The translations under genes were made by a program, and so were the position numbers. From Akkermansia muciniphila (GTDB lineage Bacteria; Verrucomicrobiota; Verrucomicrobiia; Limisphaerales; UBA9464), in assembly GCA_945861565.1 (NCBI GenBank), contig CAMAUY010000008.1, positions 6,032 to 70,031 on the forward strand: a stretch of 64,000 bases of DNA. The letters are read 5' to 3'. Below, one piece after another: positions 3,481 to 38,352 of the stretch. The notes under the pieces are model-generated. The model ran no database searches. It was not told the origin of the DNA and saw only the letters and a program-made list of their open reading frames with translations. How positions within the stretch are numbered: position 1 is the first letter of the stretch; each line of letters begins with the position of its first letter.

Positions 3481-3557
3481 AGAACCGCGGATGAACACGG
3501 ATTGACGCGGATAGAAGGGCATGGAATCTGCGTCTATCGGCGTTTATCCGTGGTTCT
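3481..3557. repeat. Palindromic interspersed repeat built from 10-bp units (module B, copy 1)
   Basis: aaccgcggat-gaacacggat-tgacgcggat ... atctgcgtct-atcggcgttt-atccgtggtt; related copies at 19981-20094 and 25943-26045. Confidence 0.85.
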
Positions 3558-7847: not shown

Positions 7848-9182
7848 TCACGCCGTCTGGGGGGCCGGCTTCTCCGGCGGTGCCGGCTCAGTTTCCGATT
7901 TCTCCAGCGGCGTCACCGAGTCGATCCCCATCCAGCACAGCGCGCCGAGAAGGTAAATGGCGGCCGAGACCCAGAAGGTCGCGGACCAGTTGTTATTGGA
8001 GAACTTCAAAATATAGCCGACCGCAACCGGCGCGATGCCGCCGGCGATGTTACCTGCCATGTTCATGCTGCCCGAGAGCGTCCCAGCGTATTTGCCGCCC
8101 ACGTCCATGCAGCCGCCCCAGCTTCCGGCGAGGGTGAGATCGAGGAGGAAACTGGCGATGCCCATCAAGATCATTGCCCCGACGGGGCTCTGGAGAGACA
8201 TTGAGGCGATCAACATGCCGGCGGCCGTGGTAAAGCCGAAGTAAGCAAGGTAGCGGCGCGCGCGACCAAGATCTTTGAGCAGTCCCGCCAGCCGGTTGGC
8301 CACGATGCCGCCCATCAACGAACCCAGTCCGCCGAAAAACAGCGGGAACCCCGCCAGCAGCGCACTCTTCTGCAGATCCAGGCCGCGCGCTTCCTTTAAG
8401 TATGTCGGCAGCCACGTAATGTAAAAATACCAGCCGTAGGCAAAACAAAAGTATTGCAGCCACAGCATCCAGACCGTGCGCGAGCGCAGCATCTTTCCCC
8501 ACGGTACGTTGGCGTGCCCGGCGGAGTTGATCTGCGTTTCTTTGAGCAGTTCAAGTTCGGCAGCGTTGACCCCCCGGTGATCACGCGGATTATCCCGAAA
8601 CCAGCGGTAGAAAAAAAACGCCCAGACGACGCCAAGGACGCCAAAGACCACAAAGGCACGGCGCCACGACATCAGCGTAAACACCCACACCACCAACATG
8701 GGCGTAAACGCGCCGCCCCAACGAGCGGTTAGCCACATCACACCCACTGCGCGACTGCGCTCGCTCTGCGGCAGCCAATTCGTGAACATCTTGGCCAAGT
8801 TTGGAAAACAGCCGGCCTCGCCCGCGCCGAACAAAAAGCGCATCACCACGAGCGACGAAAGATTCCACGCCCAGCCGGTGGCCGCTGTGAAGAACGACCA
8901 CCAGACCACGACGCGCATCAGCACCTTGCGCGGTCCAATCTTGTCACCCAGCCAACCCCCGGGAATTTCAAATAACGCGTAGGCCCAGGCGAACGACGCA
9001 AACGCCCAGCTCATCTCCACTTTCGTCAGGCCGAGATCCCGCTGAATGTCCGGCGCGGCCTGGGAAATACAGACTCGGTCAATGTACGTGACGATGGCGA
9101 GCGTGGCCGCAAAAGCCAAAATCCAATGTCGCGTGCGCGATGGACGCAACGGGGGCGCTGTGGGATCGGTCGCAGTCGGCAT
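7848..9182 (-). CDS. MFS transporter, anion:cation symporter (galactonate/glucarate/hexuronate type)
   Basis: TYIDRVCIS, GWLGDKIGPRK motif A, RFLFGAGEAGCFP; ~12 TM segments. Confidence 0.9.
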   Translation of the reverse strand: MPTATDPTAPPLRPSRTRHWILAFAATLAIVTYIDRVCISQAAPDIQRDLGLTKVEMSWAFASFAWAYALFEIPGGWLGDKIGPRKVLMRVVVWWSFFTAATGWAWNLSSLVVMRFLFGAGEAGCFPNLAKMFTNWLPQSERSRAVGVMWLTARWGGAFTPMLVVWVFTLMSWRRAFVVFGVLGVVWAFFFYRWFRDNPRDHRGVNAAELELLKETQINSAGHANVPWGKMLRSRTVWMLWLQYFCFAYGWYFYITWLPTYLKEARGLDLQKSALLAGFPLFFGGLGSLMGGIVANRLAGLLKDLGRARRYLAYFGFTTAAGMLIASMSLQSPVGAMILMGIASFLLDLTLAGSWGGCMDVGGKYAGTLSGSMNMAGNIAGGIAPVAVGYILKFSNNNWSATFWVSAAIYLLGALCWMGIDSVTPLEKSETEPAPPEKPAPQTA

Positions 9183-18377: not shown

Positions 18378-19733
18378 TCATTGTCCTGCATCGAGCAGCT
18401 TTCGAAGTGCACTCATCAGAATTAATTCAGATCCAGGCCCGACATACGTCGCGTCCGGGCTGGTTTCGTACCCGCCCTCTGAATAAGCCACCGCCGTACC
18501 GATATATGCCGTACCGTAGTCGCCATACGCTGCCATGGCGACGTTGAGGTCCGGTCGGAGTTTTTGCGCGGCCAGTTGATATTCGACGAACAATTCTCCG
18601 GGCAGGTTCAGTATTCGCGTGCTGCCAAGTTGTAGACAGGATACCTCGATCGCCAGTCCGGTCTCCCGACGTTCCATCCAGGCAAGCATCGGGGCGACGG
18701 TGTAGAGTGCGGGCGTCTTGAGTCGCGCTTCAATCTTGTCCCGATCCAGCTGGCCTCCCACAGGGATCGACACCCGCTCGACTCCCCATTTCAAGTCTTC
18801 GGATTGGACGCGAGTTCGGCGGGTAGCAGCCCAGGCACGCGCCATGCCATCGGCGAGGCGGCCGGCGAGCACCGCACGGTTGGTGACGGCTCCGTTGTTG
18901 TACTTTCCGGCCCCCAGATTGCCACCCGCGCCATTGAAATGGACATGTTTCACCCCGGGAAGCGCCTGGTCACGGAGGAATCGGGCGATGCCTGGAAAAT
19001 CGGGATTCGCAATCCCTGTGCGATAGTAACTCTGCGGATGGCACGCATAGTAACTCAAAACCGCGATAGGACGATCGCTGTCCCAAAAGCTGACCAGCGT
19101 CACGAAGGGATCGATGACTCCCTCCGGCTCCGCCCGCAACGCGGGATCCCTGGTGGCTGTGTAACGCACCGCTTTGATTTTTCCGTCCGGCCCGGGAATC
19201 CGCCGATTGGAGGCAATCTCCTTCACTTCCGCCCGGCCCCACCCGACTTGATTGAACGCATGGGTATTTGTCATCGCACCCGACAGGGCCGCGGCGGCGC
19301 GGGCAATCGTCGGTCGCCCCCAGGCGGCATCAAACGAACCTGGCGGAAGTTTCCTCTGCCGCAGCACACGCTCCGTTGTGGTGTCGAACACGGGGGCGTC
19401 ATGCTGATGAATCGCGTGCACACTGACCCGGCTACGGGAGGTTCCGGCCGCTGCCGCCAGTGCCTCCCGAAACTCGTCATGCCCGCCATTGGCAATGCCA
19501 ATCCAGTCCACCGAGCAAAGCACCACAGGTTCTCCCATCCCTGTGATGACCACACCTCGACAGCGCAGTCCAAGTTCGCCGACCGCTTTCATCGGATCGT
19601 ACATCAACTGGCTGCCGGTTGGCGGGGTGGCGTCGACATCAAAGGTCCCGATGTGCAAGGCGGCGCCAGACACCAATTGGGCGGACAGACCTCCACAGAC
19701 CAGGAGGACGAGAAATCGGACGAGGGCAGGCAT
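18378..19733 (-). CDS. Neutral/alkaline ceramidase-like exported protein
   Basis: Signal peptide; HAIHQHDAP, NRR, YYACHP, FNGAGGN, LPGELFVEYQL, GYE motifs; start placed at ATG 19733. Confidence 0.65.
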   Translation of the reverse strand: MPALVRFLVLLVCGGLSAQLVSGAALHIGTFDVDATPPTGSQLMYDPMKAVGELGLRCRGVVITGMGEPVVLCSVDWIGIANGGHDEFREALAAAAGTSRSRVSVHAIHQHDAPVFDTTTERVLRQRKLPPGSFDAAWGRPTIARAAAALSGAMTNTHAFNQVGWGRAEVKEIASNRRIPGPDGKIKAVRYTATRDPALRAEPEGVIDPFVTLVSFWDSDRPIAVLSYYACHPQSYYRTGIANPDFPGIARFLRDQALPGVKHVHFNGAGGNLGAGKYNNGAVTNRAVLAGRLADGMARAWAATRRTRVQSEDLKWGVERVSIPVGGQLDRDKIEARLKTPALYTVAPMLAWMERRETGLAIEVSCLQLGSTRILNLPGELFVEYQLAAQKLRPDLNVAMAAYGDYGTAYIGTAVAYSEGGYETSPDATYVGPGSELILMSALRKLLDAGQ

Positions 19734-19787
19734 TGCGAAACGATTATCCGTGGGACGACAATCAGCAACCGGATTTCCGGCCCGACC

Positions 19788-20190
19788 GGGGTGGATGACC
19801 AAAATCTTCAGGAGTTCCCGCATCACCCCCGTTACTCCTGCAAACGGGTCGATGCCTTGATCGGGCTCTTCCCGACCGGAGCCACGCGTTAGGATTCGCA
19901 CGCGAAGCCGCGAAGCAGAGCAGGCTCGGACGACAACGTCGGCATGGATCTAACTCGATGCGGATATTGCGGGGGGGAAGAACCGCGGATTCAGTCGGAT
20001 TGACACGGATAAAGAGGAAGCCGTTGCCTCTCACCTTGTGAGTGAGCGCCCGGAATCAGCGTTTATCGGCGTTCATCCGTGGTTCCACACTCCGGTTCAT
20101 TGGATTACTGGAATATCCAGGCAGACGGCCTGGTCGAAATTCATCAAAAATCGCCGAAAATTTAATCTTTTCAGATTTTTGTCTCAAACC
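19788..20190 (+). repeat. ~400-bp composite repeat, left copy (inverted relative to 25837-26243)
   Basis: Aligns with the reverse complement of 25837-26243: first ~135 nt with 6 mismatches, ~50 nt divergent, last ~220 nt about 90% identical. Confidence 0.95.
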
Positions 20191-20256
20191 CGCCCCGATC
20201 CGAGAAAAAATCTGAGGCTGGCGTAGGTCTCGGTTTGGTGCCAATGTCGCTTCCTC

Positions 20257-20922
20257 ATGAATGCAATGAACTTCGTAATGGTTGTGGGGCTGGGGCTTGG
20301 ACTGGCCTCCTCGTTGTCCGCGGGTACCAATGGTTTTGTAGTGCCATCCTTTCGCGGCACTCCCAATGCCCAGTTTGCGGGTTGGGAGTCGTTTACGGTC
20401 GCCACGGATAATGGTGTCGGGAATTCGCCGGACTTACCTGGCAGCGGGGCGATCGGTGCCTTGATTCAACGCGAGCCCCACGCCGTTGTTTTGGGCTCTG
20501 GAAACATTTACAATCAGGACTTCAAGAGCGAGTTCGAGGTGCGCTACTCTGCCAGCGAGAACCCCTCGCTCGTCGTGCTCCAGGTCCGAACCGCGGGCAA
20601 TGAGCTCGCCTACGATTCCGTCAAACTCACCTACGCGGGTGGCTCCGAATCGGCCACTCGCACCGAACTTGATCGCGTGTCCTTCGGCGGCCCCCCGGGA
20701 GCCCCCGGTAGCGGTGCCTTCGTATCCTCAAAATGGGAATGGGATGTCACCGGGAAGAATGCCGGCAATTTTTCGATCCTTTTCAACGCAGCCGACGTTA
20801 GCGTGAGCTTGGATTCATTGACATTGGACGTGCAATCCGTACCTGAACCGTCCGGATGGGCCCTAGTCCTGGGCGGCATCGGCGTGCTCGGATGGACTGC
20901 CCGCCGCCGCGGATCTTGCTGA
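20257..20922 (+). CDS. PEP-CTERM sorting domain protein
   Basis: Signal peptide; C-terminal VPEPSGWALVLGGIGVLGWTARRR. Confidence 0.92.
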   Translation: MNAMNFVMVVGLGLGLASSLSAGTNGFVVPSFRGTPNAQFAGWESFTVATDNGVGNSPDLPGSGAIGALIQREPHAVVLGSGNIYNQDFKSEFEVRYSASENPSLVVLQVRTAGNELAYDSVKLTYAGGSESATRTELDRVSFGGPPGAPGSGAFVSSKWEWDVTGKNAGNFSILFNAADVSVSLDSLTLDVQSVPEPSGWALVLGGIGVLGWTARRRGSC

Positions 20923-21151
20923 TCTATGGGGCGGACCAAAGATCTCTTGCGCTCAGCATGAATCGGCAAGCCGGAGCGCGGGATTTATCCCGAAGGACCG
21001 TCAGAAAGCCGAGAGGCTATGGAGTTTTTGAGTCACGTCGTGCCGTTGGAGCCTCCCGCAGACTAAAGTCCGCGCTCCGACCGCGGTTTGTGGTCCTTAT
21101 GCCTTCCATGTCTTGGGTATCTTCCCGCTCCGTAAACCGGTTGGGCGAAAT

Positions 21152-22477
21152 ATGAGTGTACCCTGGCCACTGCGGTGGCAAGCCACCGCAGTCCAAGAGG
21201 CTGGCGCACCCGCCGGAATCCGCAGGTGCTGGATCGTTCTCTGCCTGCTGCTCACCGGGTTCGGTATTGTGCGATCCGCTGCCACGGATATCTCAGGCGA
21301 ATTGGCGTCACCCAGCCTCGATCGTTGGGTATATCCATTTGGTGATTTTGACGGACAACGCCCGGTTGCAAATACGTGGGGGTCCTTTGACCCACGATTC
21401 GACACTCGCGATGGTCAATTCCTCCTGGGTTGGAATCTGACAGGCGGACTGACCAACCAGGGTCCGCGTAATTATTTATTCCGATCCGTTCGCGTCATTC
21501 TCGCCGTCGCTGCGGATAAGGGCTTCCAATACGACCCCACGCCCGACCGCTACGAAACGTACCTCGGGACGAACGAACCCGCTTTCCGGCCCGATGAGGA
21601 TGTGGGACGTCCCGTGGAACTGTACGGGGCCGGCTACCGTGGCGGTTACACGGCCGAATCCTTTCTCGAAGCATCGCCCTTTGGCGTTATCGGCCCGATT
21701 ACCGGAACCAATATCGCTATCGGCACTCGTAACGTATACGCCGCGATGTTTGATACGAACGGGGTGCTCGTAGACGTGAGCAACAACGTTGGCCAGCCCG
21801 GTTACGCCCCGTTTGAGACAGCTCCATGGACGATTGGAACCACGACCAATGTGGCCCCCGGCGAGTTAGTGCCGTCTGAAGCGCTTTTTTCCTTTGACGT
21901 CGATCTGCGCCATCCCCTCGTCCTTGGGTATATTCGCGACGCTTTTCATGTTGGGCAACTCCGCTTGGTGGCGAGCTCACTCCACCGCGCCATGCAAATT
22001 GGAATTGGTGGCGGAGGCTCGTATCCCCAATGGCATACGAAGGAAAAGATTCTGGGCATTCCCCCCAGACTGCAGTGGGACGCCGTGGCGATTCGGCTGG
22101 ATGTGGACACGGACATCGACGGTCTTCCCGATGATTGGGAGGTCTACTATTTCGACAATCTCGATAAGGGGCCGGAGGATGATCCGGACGGAGACGGCGC
22201 TTCCGACGCATTTGAACTCGCTTCGGGAACAGATCCGACGAACCCCGCGAGCCGGTTCTGGATTCGGGCTCACCGGGAATTGAGCGATGGGCGGACCCAG
22301 ATCGAGTTTCCGATTGAGGCAAATTATCGATATAAGGTGCAGGTCTCGAATGACCTGCAGAACTGGCCCGCGGTGCCAGGCTTGATTTCGTACCGGCCGG
22401 GAGGAATCGCCGTCTGGGAGGAAAGTCAGGTTGCGCCGACCGTTTCCGTGCGATTTTTCCGGGTCGTCATCGAGTAG
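21152..22477 (+). CDS. Exported hypothetical protein with TSP3-like Ca-binding repeats and a verrucomicrobial-type C-terminal beta module
   Basis: Signal peptide; DTDIDGLPDDWE, DPDGDGASDAFE...GTDP; YKVQVSNDLQNW...RFFRV at the C-terminus. Confidence 0.7.
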   Translation: MSVPWPLRWQATAVQEAGAPAGIRRCWIVLCLLLTGFGIVRSAATDISGELASPSLDRWVYPFGDFDGQRPVANTWGSFDPRFDTRDGQFLLGWNLTGGLTNQGPRNYLFRSVRVILAVAADKGFQYDPTPDRYETYLGTNEPAFRPDEDVGRPVELYGAGYRGGYTAESFLEASPFGVIGPITGTNIAIGTRNVYAAMFDTNGVLVDVSNNVGQPGYAPFETAPWTIGTTTNVAPGELVPSEALFSFDVDLRHPLVLGYIRDAFHVGQLRLVASSLHRAMQIGIGGGGSYPQWHTKEKILGIPPRLQWDAVAIRLDVDTDIDGLPDDWEVYYFDNLDKGPEDDPDGDGASDAFELASGTDPTNPASRFWIRAHRELSDGRTQIEFPIEANYRYKVQVSNDLQNWPAVPGLISYRPGGIAVWEESQVAPTVSVRFFRVVIE

Positions 22478-23429
22478 AATCCGAAGGTATCCGCAAGGCG
22501 GCTACCCCGGATCGAAAATCTTCCGGCAAGGGCGCATTGAATTCCATCCGCTGGCCTGTTCGCGGATGAGGGAAAGCGAGCGTGCGCGCGTGCAACAATT
22601 GCCGCGGGGCCAGGTAGCCGGTCACTTCGTGCAATCGTTTCGTTTGTCGCTGGCCGTAGGTGTCGTCTCCGAGGACAGGAAAACCGAGATGTTGAAAATG
22701 GACTCGGATCTGATGCGTGCGTCCCGTATGGAGGACTGCTTCGACGAACGTGGCGCCCTCCAACCGTTCCAGCAGCCGGTAGGTTGTCCGGGCCGAACGA
22801 CCCTTCGACGCTGGAACGACGGCCATCTGCTGCCGGCGTGTCGGATGCCGGGCGATCGCAGCACGAATGTCTCCGGCCGGCGGGGTTAAGTTGCCGCACA
22901 CCACCGTTTGATAGATTTTTTCAACGCGGCGCTCAGCGAAATGCTCGCTGAGTTGGAGATGAGCCGGGTCATTTTTTGCCACCGCGAGACAGCCGCTCGT
23001 TCCCAGGTCCAGGCGGTGCACAATCCCAGGCCGAATCACGCCACCGATCCCGCTCAACTCACCTCGGCAATGGTGGAGGACGGCGTTGACGATGGTGCCG
23101 GTTTTGTGTCCGGCACTGGGATGCACCACGAGATCGGCGGGCTTGTTGATCACTAGCAGGTCCTCGTCCTCAAAAAGTATTTCCAGGGGCATTTCCTCGG
23201 GTAGCACTTCGGAGGATTCTGGCGCCGGCCAGTGAATGGTAATTGCGTCCCCGGCTCGGGGTCGGTGGTTGGGTTTAGTGGGGAGCCCATTCACCAGGAG
23301 ATGGTGGTCCCCGATCAGCCGTTGAAACGTGCTGCGAGAAATCTCGGGCATTCGCTCGACCAGGTACCGGTCCAGACGGTCGGTCGAAGGAGATCCCTCG
23401 ATCCGCAGGGTGTCGTTACCCGTTTTCAC
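22467..23429 (-). CDS. rluD: RluA-family pseudouridine synthase (RluD-like, with S4 domain)
   Basis: RLDRYL S4 domain, INKPADLVVHP, GIVHRLDLGTSG, TGRTHQIRVH, LHA; GTG start overlaps the lgt stop (GTGA). Confidence 0.92.
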   Translation of the reverse strand: MKTGNDTLRIEGSPSTDRLDRYLVERMPEISRSTFQRLIGDHHLLVNGLPTKPNHRPRAGDAITIHWPAPESSEVLPEEMPLEILFEDEDLLVINKPADLVVHPSAGHKTGTIVNAVLHHCRGELSGIGGVIRPGIVHRLDLGTSGCLAVAKNDPAHLQLSEHFAERRVEKIYQTVVCGNLTPPAGDIRAAIARHPTRRQQMAVVPASKGRSARTTYRLLERLEGATFVEAVLHTGRTHQIRVHFQHLGFPVLGDDTYGQRQTKRLHEVTGYLAPRQLLHARTLAFPHPRTGQRMEFNAPLPEDFRSGVAALRIPSDSTR

Positions 23430-24217
23430 GGGACGAGGGTCCGCACGGTGGATCGAGCGGGCCGGAGGTAGGAATAAAGAATCACTCCGGACAATAGTAT
23501 GGGAACACTGACCCATTGTCCCGGAGTGAAGACGCCTGCTGCCGGCGCAGAAATACGAGAATAATCTCCGCGGAAATACTCGGTGAAACTGCGGATGACG
23601 GCGTACCCGATCAGGTATCCGGCAAAGATTTGACCATCGAACCGTCGGCGATTGAACCACCCGCTCAAAACACCATACAGGATCAGATTGAGCGCCGCCT
23701 CATACAACTGCGTGGGATGCACGGGGCCATCCCCGGGCAAACCGGACGCGGACGGAAACCGGACGCCCCAGGGTTGGAGCGTCGGCTGCCCGAAGCAACA
23801 GCCATTAAAAAAACATCCGAACCGTCCAAACACGTGACCGAGAGCAATGCTGGGAGCGGAACAATCCGCCACAGCCCACAGCGGCAATCCCGTCGTCTTG
23901 ACTCGCCAGATACCGACGAAAATTGCGAGAACGAGGCCCCCGTAAAATACGAGGCCACCATTCCAAACCTGAAAGGCCTCGATCCATGGACGGCCGCTGA
24001 AGTCCTTCTCCCAATAATTCAGAACGTACATCGCACGAGCACCGAGGAGACCGGCACCGAGCAACCAGGGACCGAGGTCGAGGATCTTTTCTGGACGAAT
24101 CGACAGGCGGGCAGCCCGCCGGGCGGCGGTCCACATTCCGAAGACAAAGCCGAGCGCCACGAGAATTCCGAAGGCCCGCACCGGAAAGGTTCCGAGATAA
24201 AATAGGACGGGTTTCAC
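23426..24217 (-). CDS. lgt: Prolipoprotein diacylglyceryl transferase
   Basis: GGLVFYGG, GRFGCFFNGCCFG, HPTQLYE, RSFTEYFRGD. Confidence 0.93.
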   Translation of the reverse strand: MKPVLFYLGTFPVRAFGILVALGFVFGMWTAARRAARLSIRPEKILDLGPWLLGAGLLGARAMYVLNYWEKDFSGRPWIEAFQVWNGGLVFYGGLVLAIFVGIWRVKTTGLPLWAVADCSAPSIALGHVFGRFGCFFNGCCFGQPTLQPWGVRFPSASGLPGDGPVHPTQLYEAALNLILYGVLSGWFNRRRFDGQIFAGYLIGYAVIRSFTEYFRGDYSRISAPAAGVFTPGQWVSVPILLSGVILYSYLRPARSTVRTLVP

Positions 24218-24358
24218 CGTTCGGGAATCCTAGCTGAAAAGCAGGTGACCGCGCATCTCGAAGTTGCTGGTAAACGAGAAAAATAAACAAATCCCGTTGG
24301 CCCGGCAGAGACCGCCGGAGGCTCCACCGGGCTCCGCAGGACCCGCAGCATCCGGAAT

Positions 24359-25126
24359 TCATCCGACGGATTGATCCCGATCTCCCGTCACCGAGGCGAC
24401 GGCGAGGGGTCGATTCCTCCGGCGCCGCCACCAGGCGAATACACCCAGGCTCCCAGCAAACATCGCCGCGTATTCCTCCGGTTCCGGTACCGGTGAGATC
24501 GCTCCGCTGATCGCGACGTTGTCCACGCCGAAGGTCCCTCCGGCTTGTTCAGCCCCATACGCGTAAATGCGGAAGGTCACGGGTTGGGCAACCGGCCCAA
24601 ACTCTGTCCCGAGACTAACCGTGCTACCGTTGACATCGGCCGGCTGCGTTGCGGAGTTGTCGTTAACAAAGTGAAAGACATTCTGTGATGCCTGGAGTTC
24701 CCCGTTATCGGGTGATATGCCCGCCGGGAGATTCGCCGCAAAATTGTCCAAACTCGACCGGACAACAAAGTCCCGCGGACCGGTGCCAGAGCGGCGGACC
24801 CCGAAAGTGATGGTCTCGAAGTTCACTTGGGACCCGGGAGCGGGGGTGAGAGTCGTTTCGTAGAATTTCCCCGCATCAAGTTCGGCGGCGGTCGTCCACC
24901 CGGAAAAGGTGAAAAGGGTGCTCGCCCGGGGATTGGCTCCGAGACCCGTGGCATTAAAGCTGCCGAAAGTGAGTTCCGGCACCGTGGGGGGCGGGGTGGG
25001 GTCGATGGTTCCGCCCGCATTTGCGGTGACGAGATCGAAGGTGAAGGTGCCCAAAACGTCGGCCTGGGTGATCGACGGTCCGGTGGCGAGAGCGCCGATG
25101 AGCAAGAGCTGTTGTGAGATGCACAT
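24359..25126 (-). CDS. PEP-CTERM sorting domain protein
   Basis: Signal peptide; VPEPEEYAAMFAGSLGVFAWWRRRR. Confidence 0.9.
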   Translation of the reverse strand: MCISQQLLLIGALATGPSITQADVLGTFTFDLVTANAGGTIDPTPPPTVPELTFGSFNATGLGANPRASTLFTFSGWTTAAELDAGKFYETTLTPAPGSQVNFETITFGVRRSGTGPRDFVVRSSLDNFAANLPAGISPDNGELQASQNVFHFVNDNSATQPADVNGSTVSLGTEFGPVAQPVTFRIYAYGAEQAGGTFGVDNVAISGAISPVPEPEEYAAMFAGSLGVFAWWRRRRNRPLAVASVTGDRDQSVG

Positions 25127-25321
25127 AATGTATTCCTTTATGAGAGTTTCCGTTGTGAGGTTTTCCGTTCACGGGATGAAGAACCGTCCGAGTTGTGCGA
25201 TTTCGGGGAAAAGAGATGAATCGGCGGAGGTGCGCTTTTGGGAGCGGATCGGGAGGGTGGGCTGCCGTTCAACGTGCAACGGGTCTTCCCTTCGCCGTCG
25301 GGTTGATTCATGGTCCCGGTC

Positions 25322-25828
25322 ATGGCGTGGCGCATTCATGACTCCGTGGTCCAGGGTGTAATCGACAACCGGGTGCGCGGTGCGGTGACAGGCCAACTAT
25401 GGTTGGTCGGACGGGCTGCCCCGTTGCAGTTGCGCTTGCGTGGGAACGCGTGCGGCGATCTAGCCGGGTGCGAGCTGTCGTTCGAGCGGGTTCAACCCGA
25501 CACGCTGATTGCAACCTCACTAGCCATGATCCAGGAGGGGGTGGTCGGGGAGATGACCGCTTCCAGGAAGGCCCGCCTCCACGTCGTGTCAACGGCCGAT
25601 CCCGGCGGTGCCGCGGTACCATTGGAGCGGATCCCACGACCGCGACTGGCCAACGTTCTCTCTCTGGAATGGTACAGTGAGCGGAACGGGCGGGTGGTGC
25701 TCGAAAGCGCTGATTTCAATATGCGCGTCTCCGAGCACGCCTGGTCGCTCTCAGCCATAGAGGAAGAGGAGCAGCGCAGGGTGAATGCCGCGGCTCTCCG
25801 GGAGTTCCTGCGTCGACTGGCCGAGTAG
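25322..25828 (+). CDS. Conserved hypothetical protein (MAWRI...GxIDNR type), possibly C-terminally truncated
   Basis: MAWRIHDSVVQGVIDNR...GEMTASRK...SLEWYSERNGRVVLES; the stop lies ~9 nt before the right repeat copy. Confidence 0.6.
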   Translation: MAWRIHDSVVQGVIDNRVRGAVTGQLWLVGRAAPLQLRLRGNACGDLAGCELSFERVQPDTLIATSLAMIQEGVVGEMTASRKARLHVVSTADPGGAAVPLERIPRPRLANVLSLEWYSERNGRVVLESADFNMRVSEHAWSLSAIEEEEQRRVNAAALREFLRRLAE

Positions 25829-25836
25829 CGGCGCTG

Positions 25837-26243
25837 GGGTGTGAGACAAAAATCTGAAAAGATTCAGTTTTCAGCCGTTTTTGATGAATTTTGACCAGGC
25901 CGTCTGCCTGGATATTCCAGTAATCCACTGAACCGGAGTTGGAACCACGGATGAACGCCGATAAACGCTGATTCTAGGCGGTCACTCAGAAGGTGAGCGG
26001 CAACGGCTTCCCCTTTTCCGCGTCCATCCGTGTGAATCCGCGGTTCTTCCCCCCGGCACTTTGCGTTTCGACTCGAACGTTGTCCGGGGACGTTTTGACC
26101 AAGCCCTCTGCTTTGCTTCGCGGCTTCGCGTGCGAATCCTACCGCGTGGCTCCGGTCGGGAAGAGCCCGATCAAGCCATCGACCCGTTTGCACGAGTAAC
26201 GGGGGTGATGCGGGAACTCGTGAAGATTTTTGTCATCCACCCG
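25837..26243 (-). repeat. ~400-bp composite repeat, right copy
   Basis: Reverse complement of 19788-20190 (see left copy). Confidence 0.95.
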
Positions 26244-26316
26244 CGGCGCTGTTCTCCGCCAGTTTCTGCTTCGCAGAAGCGACGGTTTCGGGCAATGTCT
26301 CCCAACGCTTTTCACC

Positions 26317-27162
26317 ATGAGACTTGGCATCAATACTTTTCTGTTCACCTCCCCGTTCACCACCGCGAGCGTTAAGCTCTTCCCCACCTTTAAAAAATGG
26401 GGATTTCAGACGATTGAAATCCCGGTCGAAGATCCGAGTCACATTGACCCGGCCAAGGTCCGCGCGGCACTCGACAAACACGGGTTGGCCTGCGGATCCG
26501 TGTGCGCCTGCATGGGGCCGGGACGCGATTTTCGGGGCTCGGAAGCCGAACAAAAGACTGCGATGGTCTACTGCAAAAATTTGATCGATCAGATGGTCGT
26601 TCTCGGTTGCCCTTCGCTGATCGGCCCCGTGTACAGCGTGGTCGGCAAAGCAGACGCGGTTGAACCCTCCGCGCAAAAGAAGGAATGGGCCCTCGTAGTA
26701 AAGAACCTGAAGGTGCTCGCAAAATACGCCCAGTCAAAAGGAGTTCAGATCTGTGTGGAACCGCTCAACCGGTTTGAGACGGATTTCCTGAACACCTGCG
26801 ATCAGGGGCTTAAGCTCGTCAAAGCCGTCGGAAACCCCGCCTTCAGACTCCATCTCGACACGTTCCATATGAACATCGAGGAAAAGAATCAGGCCGCTGC
26901 CATTCGCAAGGCCGGAAAGTACCTTGGCCACTTCCATGCCTGCGGCAGTGACCGTGGCACTCCCGGCAACGATCACATCGACTGGAAACCCATTGCCAAG
27001 GCGCTCAAGGAAATCCGCTATCAGGGCGATGTTGTGATCGAAAGTTTTACGACTGACGTAAAGGTCATCGCTCGTGCGGCGGCCATCTGGCGTCGGATGG
27101 AGCCCACGCGTAATGAAATTGCCACCAAGGGCATCGTGTTCCTCAAAAAGGCCCTCCGCTAA
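26317..27162 (+). CDS. Sugar phosphate isomerase/epimerase (D-psicose/D-tagatose 3-epimerase family, TIM barrel)
   Basis: CVEPLNRFETD, HLDTFHMNIEE, HFHACGSDRGTPG, VIESF. Confidence 0.9.
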   Translation: MRLGINTFLFTSPFTTASVKLFPTFKKWGFQTIEIPVEDPSHIDPAKVRAALDKHGLACGSVCACMGPGRDFRGSEAEQKTAMVYCKNLIDQMVVLGCPSLIGPVYSVVGKADAVEPSAQKKEWALVVKNLKVLAKYAQSKGVQICVEPLNRFETDFLNTCDQGLKLVKAVGNPAFRLHLDTFHMNIEEKNQAAAIRKAGKYLGHFHACGSDRGTPGNDHIDWKPIAKALKEIRYQGDVVIESFTTDVKVIARAAAIWRRMEPTRNEIATKGIVFLKKALR

Positions 27163-27265
27163 CGTGCCCCCGTCGCGCGGATGCACCATTCCTCGGCACC
27201 CCCGTACCCGGTATCGCTCTGAAAACCCTGACTCGATCTGTCCTCTGTTCGCTTATCTTAAACTT

Positions 27266-27982
27266 ATGAAACGATCATCCCTACTCGCGCTGGCGGCCGT
27301 CGCCTCGTTTGCCTTGACCGCGTGCCATTCAGTCCGACCTCAGGAGGAGAAAGGGTTTGTCAGCCTGTTTGATGGCAAGACTCTGAAAGGCTGGAACGGC
27401 CGGTCGGATCTTTGGAGCGTGCGCGACGGCACCATCACCGGGGAAACCCACGCGATTAACCCCCTCAAGGGCAATACATTTCTCGTCTGGACCAACGGTG
27501 TGGTCGATAATTTTGAACTGCGTTTCGACTACAAAATCCTCAATGGCAATTCCGGGATACAATACCGCAGCCAGTTGCTCGATCCCGAAGCATTTGTGGT
27601 GGGCGGCTATCAAGCCGACTTTGAAGCCGGGAAGACCTATTCTGGAATTTTATATGAGGAGCGCCAACGCGGCATTCTCGCGCAACGGGGGCAACGGACC
27701 GTTGTGCGCGACGTTGCCGGCAAAACCCAAGTGGACGTCGTCGGCAGTGTCGGTGATTCGGCTGCCATTCAGGCATTGATCCATGATCGCGACTGGAATA
27801 GCTACGTCGTGATCGCCAATGACAATCATCTGATGCATTTTATCAACTCCAAGATGACGGTGGATGTCGTCGATCACCAGGCCGCGAAGGCGGCTAAGTC
27901 CGGCATCCTCGCATTCCAGATCCATGCCGGTCCGCCGATGCTGGTGCAATTCCGCAATGTCCGGCTGCGGCGCCTGCCCTGA
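27266..27982 (+). CDS. DUF1080 (3-keto-disaccharide hydrolase-like) protein, probable lipoprotein
   Basis: Lipobox LTAC; LFDGKTLKGW, NSGIQYRS, GYQAD, WNSY, LAFQIHAG. Confidence 0.9.
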   Translation: MKRSSLLALAAVASFALTACHSVRPQEEKGFVSLFDGKTLKGWNGRSDLWSVRDGTITGETHAINPLKGNTFLVWTNGVVDNFELRFDYKILNGNSGIQYRSQLLDPEAFVVGGYQADFEAGKTYSGILYEERQRGILAQRGQRTVVRDVAGKTQVDVVGSVGDSAAIQALIHDRDWNSYVVIANDNHLMHFINSKMTVDVVDHQAAKAAKSGILAFQIHAGPPMLVQFRNVRLRRLP

Positions 27983-32065: not shown

Positions 32066-32100
32066 TGTTGTGGAGTCAGGACTCCGGCCTGACACTGGAG
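32066..32100 (+). repeat. Short REP-like hairpin unit (direct-repeat partner of 36671-36703)
   Basis: tgttgtggagtcaggactccggcctgacactggag vs tgttgtgggtcaggctccggcctgaccctggag; gtcagg/cctgac stem. Confidence 0.75.
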
Positions 32101-32258
32101 ATTGGCCATTCTGGGAAGACAAAATGGACGCTCTTCCAACAGCTGTGGCGTACTCCGGAGGCGCGGAGCGCCGTCAGATCGTAGCCCATGGCGTCAGCCG
32201 TGGGTTCCCGGGTGCGCCGCACGCAAGCCCCGGAGGGGCGAAAGAGAATTTGGCACAA
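32094..32258 (+). repeat. REP-like element arm (inverted partner of 38170-38333)
   Basis: 165 nt, about 94% identical to the reverse complement of 38170-38333; contains gtagcccatggcgtcagccgtggg and agccccggaggggcga palindromic units. Confidence 0.92.
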
Positions 32259-37986: not shown

Positions 37987-38352
37987 CGCCGCACTTCGTG
38001 CGGTGATTGGAGATTGGACATTTTCTGGCAGGTGTGTCCCCGATGGACAATCGGCATTTAGAAAAGCCGCGGAGCGGCGGCAGACCGTAGCCCACGGCGC
38101 GAGCCGTGGGTATGACGTTTGAACCAAACGGAAGCCCCGGCAGGGGCGACAGAGCTGAAGGATAGCGGCTTGTGCCAAATTCTCTGTCGCCCCTCCGGGG
38201 CTTGCGTGCGGCGCACCGGGGAACCCACGGCTGACGCCATGGGCTACGATCTGACGGCGCTCCGCGCCTCCGGAGTGCGCCTCAGCTGTAAGCAGAGCGT
38301 CCTTTTGTATTCCCAGAATGGCCAATCTCCAGTCACCGCACTTAGTGCGGTG
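37987..38352. repeat. Large imperfect palindrome of two REP-like arms (REPIN/BIME-like)
   Basis: Arm 1 (37987-~38150): gccgcacttcgtgcggtg...gtagcccacggcgcgagccgtggg...agccccggcaggggcgacag; arm 2 (38170-38352) is its diverged reverse complement. Confidence 0.88.

Follow-up and report, generated by a model that had tools for sequence, protein, structure and literature searches.

An inverted pair of miniature transposable elements with ISKra4-type ends around two PEP-CTERM genes most probably reflects separate insertions

Do inverted repeats around a block with surface-protein genes mark a functional unit, or did two mobile elements land there separately? The locus that raises this question lies in a 64,000-nucleotide (nt) stretch of DNA, here called the window, from a Verrucomicrobiota assembly labelled Akkermansia muciniphila (GTDB lineage Limisphaerales, UBA9464; GCA_945861565.1, contig CAMAUY010000008.1, positions 6,032 to 70,031 of the forward strand). 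Two ~400-bp copies of one element, in opposite orientation, bracket a 5.6-kb block that contains two PEP-CTERM genes (Table 1). We conclude that the pair represents separate insertions of a miniature inverted-repeat transposable element (MITE) and that the bracketing is a coincidence, not an invertible switch. We put the probability of this reading at roughly 0.9.

Structure of the element and its family

A repeat search linked the left and right copies by four collinear inverted segments. Module A has arms of 135 nt at 19789-19923 and 26108-26242, which are 96% identical. Two further pairs of arms, 20011-20087 with 25940-26016 and 20089-20191 with 25837-25939, are each 92% identical, and a spacer of ~50 nt between the conserved modules of the two copies is more divergent. 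When the copies were aligned with MAFFT and BLASTN, they were 88% identical across ~406 to 410 nt, which is well beyond chance. The original prediction, made from the letters of the window, had described an inverted pair with a module A, a divergent spacer, and modules B and C. It had also described the hairpins ctgga-ata-tccag and ccaggc-agacg-gcctgg and a palindrome of 10-bp units in module B. The pair (~406 nt) and the module layout were recovered by the repeat search and the pairwise alignment, and both hairpins and a long imperfect palindrome in module B were found. However, the statement that there was no terminal inverted repeat (TIR) was wrong. A 19-bp TIR bounds each copy. The left copy reads GGGTGGATGACCAAAATCT ... 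AGATTTTTGTCTCAAACCC from end to end, and the right copy reads GGGTGTGAGACAAAAATCT ... AGATTTTTGTCATCCACCC on the plus strand.

We searched the window's own assembly (5.9 Mb in 262 contigs, 93% complete, 59% G+C) by BLASTN. All or part of the element is present at ~135 loci, 71 of which are at least 120 bp long. About eight copies are full length, and many others are truncated or are recombined mosaics of A, B, and C. Two window segments, 32094-32258 and 38170-38333, did not match the element by BLASTN. The left copy aligned end to end with ~20 other genomic copies. A MAFFT alignment of 21 flanked copies revealed common sharp ends, with GGGTG(G/T)(A/G)(T/A)GACAAAAATCT... at the 5' end, ...AGATTTTTGTC(T/C)CACACCC at the 3' end, and a 19-bp TIR consensus of GGGTGTGAGACAAAAATCT. 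Perfect 9-bp target-site duplications (TSDs; 9/9 matches) flank 9 of the 21 TIR-bounded elements, including the right window copy, in which the duplicated sequence is GCGGCGCTG. For several further TIR-bounded elements the duplication was off by one base or shifted in register by one base. With up to two mismatches allowed, TIR sites numbered 85 in this genome, whereas a reversed-pattern control found none. The corresponding counts were 40 and 16 in two congeners (the sister species G002 and G001, respectively) and 29 in G005, which is from another genus of the same family. Elements of 200 to 600 bp with unrelated interiors are also bounded by the same TIRs. Therefore, the TIRs, the 9-bp duplications, and the shared ends define a family of MITEs.

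Neither window copy has a transposase open reading frame (ORF). Their internal ORFs are shorter than 110 aa and had no family match. Judged by their sequences, the window elements are MITEs with ISKra4-type ends that would depend on an ISKra4 transposase. They are not ISKra4 insertion sequences (ISs) themselves, because they carry no transposase. Repetitive extragenic palindromic (REP) sequences and REPINs are short palindromic units without a TIR or TSD and are associated with a RAYT (IS200-like) gene. Because a TIR and a TSD are present here, the element as a whole is probably not a REPIN.

Parts of the element and its surroundings recur in other repeats. The module B hairpin (~35-bp stem, GAGAACCGCGGATGAACACGGATTGACGCGGAT...ATCGGCGTTTATCCGTGGTTCTC) also forms the core of another repeat family that is highly conserved and found at 3481-3556 of the window (contig C8:9512-9587; C numbers denote contigs) and at about 12 further genomic loci. 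The arm sequence of module B is also present in other genera of the family (G014, G021, and G028). The hairpin appears to be a shared module that moves between repeat families. In addition, about eight TIR flanks adjoin one repeated palindromic sequence, ...GCGCATCCCGAAGTTGTTGGTAGAGGTTGTCGCGCTGCGACAACCCCGCC... (for example, C1:7230, C110:11686, C127:10939, C183:1681, and C104:11638). This palindrome at the element ends could be either a preferred target or part of a composite with another repeat family.

Histories of the two copies and the block between them

The right copy has an empty site in both congeners, on contigs G002:C121 and G001:C139, with conserved, collinear genes on either side. 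In G002 the homologs of 25257-25834 and 26246-27300 are separated by 9 nt in the matches, with an intergenic spacer of 24 nt. In G001 the corresponding flanks are ~85 nt apart. The right copy shares 92 to 94% identity with copies on contigs C48 and C6, compared with 88% with the left copy, and the left copy is 84 to 91% identical to copies on other contigs. The two window copies also carry different spacer variants. Comparison of the orthologous sites shows what is, by its sequence, a recent, lineage-specific insertion of the right copy.

This insertion bears directly on the bracketing. The region G001:C139:5465-12005 is collinear with window positions 20255-27300 and is without the right copy. 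Therefore, block and right flank have the same relative orientation where the right copy is absent. Because the right copy's target duplication is intact, no net inversion between the copies has occurred since that copy inserted. Its possession of its own duplication, together with the differing outer 9-mers of the pair, also means that the two copies did not move as a composite.

The left copy has a different setting. Homology of its left flank to G002:C16 ends exactly at the left-copy boundary, and the upstream neighbor of the PEP-CTERM gene differs in each of the three congeners. Therefore, the left copy lies at a synteny breakpoint. Only ~10 nt upstream of the PEP-CTERM gene in G002 resemble an element end. 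The left copy may be older, or it may have participated in a rearrangement. Only in this genome does the PEP-CTERM gene adjoin a gene for a 507-aa exported protein; in G001 and G002 both genes have other neighbors. The breakpoint intervals are 19734-19788 and 20192-20256 in the window, with comparison loci in G002:C16, G002:C88, and G001.

Members of the family do not pair more often than chance would have it. The 71 loci that measure at least 120 bp form 7 neighbor pairs less than 7 kb apart, compared with 5.0 ± 2.1 when loci were placed at random on the same contigs, and 21% of the simulations reached 7 pairs. Three of the seven pairs are inverted and four are direct. The original prediction had offered two explanations, a nonautonomous mobile element inserted twice or the ends of an invertible surface-protein block, and had proposed comparing copy number, empty sites, target duplications, and synteny. 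These comparisons gave ~135 loci, an absence of the right copy at the orthologous site in both congeners, a 9-bp duplication that is perfect for the right copy and degenerate for the left, and a block and right flank that are conserved in a congener without the right copy. The first explanation is upheld and can now be given a name, a MITE with ISKra4-type ends. The second is not supported, given the dispersed copies, the conserved synteny, and the intact right-copy duplication. The prediction had also reasoned that the bracketing would be coincidental if there were dozens of scattered copies that do not favor pairing, one orientation in all reads, and conserved synteny. Scattered copies of this kind are what the genome contains.

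We weighed three other explanations. In the first, the element is kept as a promoter, terminator, or structured leader for its neighbors. Both copies are near gene starts, module B has a long hairpin, module C is AT rich, and the left copy contains one predicted sigma-70-like site that reads inward (20187-20159). However, nothing in Rfam matched at an E value of ≤1 over 19.0 to 27.0 kb, the whole element had a predicted fold stability like that of shuffled sequences (z = -0.5), and promoter- and terminator-like sites around both copies were not above shuffles in consensus scans. Copies are also variously truncated and mosaic, orthologous genes of relatives do without the element, and the promoter-like box described below is faced by either element end. 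Such a regulatory or structured-RNA cassette is very unlikely.

We give still less credence to an invertible segment, in which the copies would be recombination sites that flip the 5.6-kb block with its two PEP-CTERM genes. The repeats of Hin/Gin/Fim-type invertons are short (roughly 10 to 30 bp) and almost the same in sequence, and a dedicated recombinase gene lies within or next to the segment. The window pair is like these in being inverted around a segment with genes for surface or exported proteins, and its identical stretches of up to ~35 nt could be used by RecA. However, these are ~400-bp transposon copies that are 12% diverged and of different subfamilies, and two genes of the block, lgt and rluD, are housekeeping genes. 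Pfam scans of the major ORFs of 17.4 to 28.0 kb found no recombinase or invertase in or beside the block. The right copy's own intact duplication on both sides, the unchanged orientation of the block in G001, and the lack of any preference for inverted pairs in the family all argue against inversion.

Least likely of all is a composite transposon, in which the two MITEs would move the block together through their outer ends: these ends are both TIRs of the right-inverted-repeat (IRR) type and are properly inverted, but their outer 9-mers mismatch (GCCCGACCG versus GCGGCGCTG), a separate duplication flanks the right copy, G001 and G002 hold the block beside the same right-flank gene without the right MITE, and the pair is missing from all relatives (40 genomes).

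Separate insertion of two MITEs therefore remains our explanation for the pair. The genes between the copies were those that the original prediction had listed, as judged by Pfam matches and translations. All of them (20257..25828, including lgt and rluD) are resident bystanders and not cargo. The rluD-like ORF has a GTG start and overlaps the same-strand lgt ORF by ~235 nt; its real start is probably further downstream. A candidate sigma-54 promoter upstream of the PEP-CTERM gene was judged by eye and rejected, as its spacing did not fit.

Table 1. Coordinates of the two element copies, their flanks, and the bracketed genes in the window
Feature	Position	Strand	Remarks
Left MITE copy	19789..20191	+	403 bp; module A/IRR-like end at 19789, module C/IRL-like (left-inverted-repeat-like) end at 20191; spacer subfamily 1
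Left copy, outer 19-bp TIR	19789..19807	+	GGGTGGATGACCAAAATCT
Left copy, inner 19-bp TIR	20173..20191	-	Minus strand reads GGGTTTGAGACAAAAATCT
Left copy, flanking 9-mer	19780..19788		GCCCGACCG, paired with GCCCCGATC at 20192-20200; target duplication is degenerate or mismatched
Module B long imperfect palindrome	19977..20085		Arms 19977-20011 and 20052-20085
TTGTCG box, left copy	19756..19761	-	27 nt beyond the A end, family-typical position
Right MITE copy	25837..26242	-	406 bp, opposite orientation; module C end at 25837, module A end at 26242; spacer subfamily 2
Right copy, TSD copy 1	25828..25836		GCGGCGCTG; overlaps final stop-codon base of gene 25310-25828
Right copy, TSD copy 2	26243..26251		GCGGCGCTG
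TTCGCA box, right copy	26270..26275	+	Weak -35-like box 27 nt beyond the A end; CAATGT 17 nt on
PEP-CTERM protein	20257-20922	+	Pfam PF07589
TSP3-repeat protein	21113-22477	+	Pfam match
rluD-like	22467-23660	-	PseudoU_synth_2 and S4
lgt	23426-24217	-	Pfam match
PEP-CTERM-like	24359-25126	-	C terminus with VPEP, hydrophobic stretch, and RRRR
Conserved hypothetical	25310-25828	+	Conserved among congeners

Transposase source and target choice

A scan for TIR pairs in 40 related genomes found one pair spaced 1743 bp, in G005 (C39:2548-4290). Its TIRs are GGGTGTGGGACAAATATCT and GGGTGTGAGACAAAATTCT, and it is flanked by a perfect 9-bp duplication, AGCTGCTGA. A 572-aa ORF of this element matched NF033572 (ISKra4 family transposase) with 225 bits (E = 1.5e-66), the cutoff being 205 bits, and also matched Pfam UPF0236. 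A small 5' ORF encodes a DUF6788 protein that is 32% identical (E = 6e-10) to an ORF in two TIR-bounded elements of ~490 to 590 bp in the window's genome, C39:32356-32947 and C171:4035-4526. Both are ISs with internal deletions. Their subterminal sequences match parts of the window MITE, with module C corresponding to the IRL side and the first ~35 nt of module A to the IRR side. DUF6788 (PF20586) is a family without an assigned function. Here it forms the small 5' ORF (L041:1676-2011) of an ISKra4-type IS and persists in internally deleted, TIR-bounded elements, which suggests that it is either an accessory protein encoded by the transposon or an N-terminal transposase module.

No IS-sized TIR pair with a transposase was found in the window's assembly. 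The sole transposase remnant there is weak (C129:11034-11390, E = 4e-6). Among the congeners, G001 has degraded and contig-end copies of an ISKra4-type transposase, and G002 has none. Two TIR pairs, C1:119873-122730 and C19:44259-47962, were considered as ISs and rejected; they contain ordinary genes and no transposase. An ISAs1-like IS was also rejected as the source of the transposase. The ends of contig C186 carry the C terminus of an ISAs1-like transposase (NF033564, E = 3e-12), which overlaps a TIR-like site with four mismatches. However, alignment of 11 ends from three genomes placed the true terminus of that IS, ...CGCGTCCTG, 45 nt further out, so that the TIR-like site lies inside the IS and is a chance match. 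This multicopy ISAs1-family IS breaks contigs in all three congeners, and its end reads ...GGCGCGTCCTG. In the window's genome it is at C186:1-495 and 8028-8477, C45:1-600, and C63:1-150. Several of the copies are deletion derivatives in which a DruA-like (DUF4338) N-terminal piece is fused to the transposase C terminus.

We then analyzed the outward flanks of all TIR ends in the genome. Before redundant flanks were removed, a TTG peak was evident at positions 28 to 30 beyond the inverted repeat (IR), with T in 51/92, T in 49/92, and G in 45/92 flanks. Removal of flanks that shared a 14-mer left 88, and in 32 of these a TTG starts 27 to 29 nt beyond the IR (binomial p = 2e-19). When the 32 flanks were aligned on the TTG, there was an A at +24 in 15 and a T at +28 in 16, which is an nAnnnT -10-like box at 17-nt spacing. 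TAnnnT was present in 7 of the 32 but followed only 4 of 419 control TTGs (p = 1e-6). The box is generally on one side of the element only, and there was no bias for which end faces it (21/51 for IRR-like ends versus 11/37 for IRL-like ends, p = 0.37). The relatives replicated the signal: of 40 flanks from G005, G001, and G002, 11 have their TTG at position 27 or 28. The family inserts 27 nt upstream of a -35-like TTGnnn-17-nAnnnT box, that is, 18 nt past the duplicated 9 bp. By analogy with related elements, these boxes may be active sigma-70-type promoters.

In the window, the A end of both copies faces a gene start. The left element end is 55 nt from the ATG (19733) of a minus-strand exported-protein gene (18378-19733). 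Beyond the A end of the right copy is a gene for a TIM-barrel protein (AP_endonuc_2) with its ATG at 26317. Because neither end is favored in the family, the inverted arrangement of the two copies is best seen as a 50:50 outcome. Tests for a stop-free frame across the restored junction and for outward ORFs had no discriminating power for intergenic insertion at 59% G+C.

These observations suggest how the pair arose. The MITEs would be moved in trans by an ISKra4-family (Mutator-like DDE) transposase. If they behave like IS256 and TnGBS relatives, movement would be copy-out/paste-in through a circular intermediate. The transposase would pick sites beside sigma-70-type promoters, as published for TnGBS, ISLre2, and ISKra4 elements. 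Such a preference would explain why both window copies are intergenic and 55 to 74 nt upstream of gene starts, and the inverted arrangement would reflect the chance of two such insertions near outward-facing genes. The copies might at times be substrates for homologous recombination, but there is no sign of programmed inversion.

It is conceivable that the family represents a distinct promoter-guided mode of transposition, in which an ISKra4-type transposase inserts 27 nt from the -35 box, by either end, and this habit was inherited by mosaic MITEs. We hold this idea tentatively, at slightly less than even odds. The 27-nt spacing would then be about one helical turn beyond that of TnGBS, ISLre2, and the published ISKra4 elements.

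Several observations weigh against our reading of two ISKra4-type MITE insertions. The 9-mers beside the left copy do not form a clean duplication (GCCCGACCG versus GCCCCGATC), and neither congener has the two flanks of this copy side by side, so its history is more than a simple insertion. The two boxes of the window itself (TTGTCG and TTCGCA) are weak. The spacing from box to IR is 27 nt, compared with 13 to 17 bp published for ISKra4-group ISs. Finally, an intact ISKra4-type transposase was not found in the 93%-complete, 262-contig assembly; therefore, any present-day mobility in this genome is putative.

Related systems and significance

MITEs derived from ISs are known in bacteria, for example, the Correia elements of Neisseria and the IS630- and IS256-derived MITEs. 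Like these, the elements described here are 200 to 600 bp long, have no transposase gene, and have TIRs identical to those of a full-length IS. They also have a target duplication of fixed length and many dispersed, partly decayed, and mostly intergenic copies. Unlike them, they have a mosaic interior in which only ~35 to 55 nt beside each TIR resemble the IS, their hairpin module is shared with another repeat family, and several unrelated interiors have the same TIRs. We found nothing specific in the literature on ISKra4 MITEs.

The p-MULT elements have IRs of 18 to 39 bp with a terminal C and direct repeats (DRs) of 8 to 9 bp (PMC3942029). Insertion upstream of sigmaA promoters, at a set distance, was shown for TnGBS, ISLre2, and several ISKra4-group ISs (PMC3942029, Guérillot et al. 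2014), and for ISs with nearly perfect IRs the promoter is on either side (PMC3942029). The window family is like the ISKra4 (p-MULT 4) group in its 19-bp IR ending in ...CACCC and its 9-bp DR, both within the published ranges. It also has a full-length relative with the same ends that encodes a transposase above the NCBIfam ISKra4 cutoff, and it inserts at a fixed distance upstream of sigma-70-type promoter motifs on either element side. It differs from the group in that the window elements have no transposase, the -35-like box is 27 nt from the IR-genome junction and not 13 to 17 bp, and the host is labelled Verrucomicrobiota, a phylum that is not among the p-MULT 4 carriers listed in PMC3942029. 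TnGBS and ISLre2 share with it the Mutator-like transposase superfamily, duplications of the 9-bp class, and insertion just upstream of sigmaA promoters. However, they insert in one orientation, with IRr by the promoter and 15 to 17 bp from the -35 box, whereas here the orientation is unbiased and the spacing is longer.

For this locus, the result removes a tempting reading. What lies here is most probably not a surface-protein block that inverts or moves but two unrelated transposon insertions. For the genome, the ~135 loci of the mosaic family account for many intergenic repeats and for some contig breaks or rearrangements in the lineage. The MITE kind and the promoter targeting of the group are already known. 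What is new is a promoter-proximal insertion signature at a new spacing. This signature extends the targeting seen in TnGBS, ISLre2, and ISKra4 elements to nonautonomous elements, to a Verrucomicrobiota-labelled lineage, and to a different fixed distance. If the promoter-guided mode is real, then the ~85 element ends would serve as naturally placed markers of sigma-70-type promoters in an uncultured lineage of Verrucomicrobiota, and the family would provide a second spacing class for probing how Mutator-like transposases read promoter-bound RNA polymerase.

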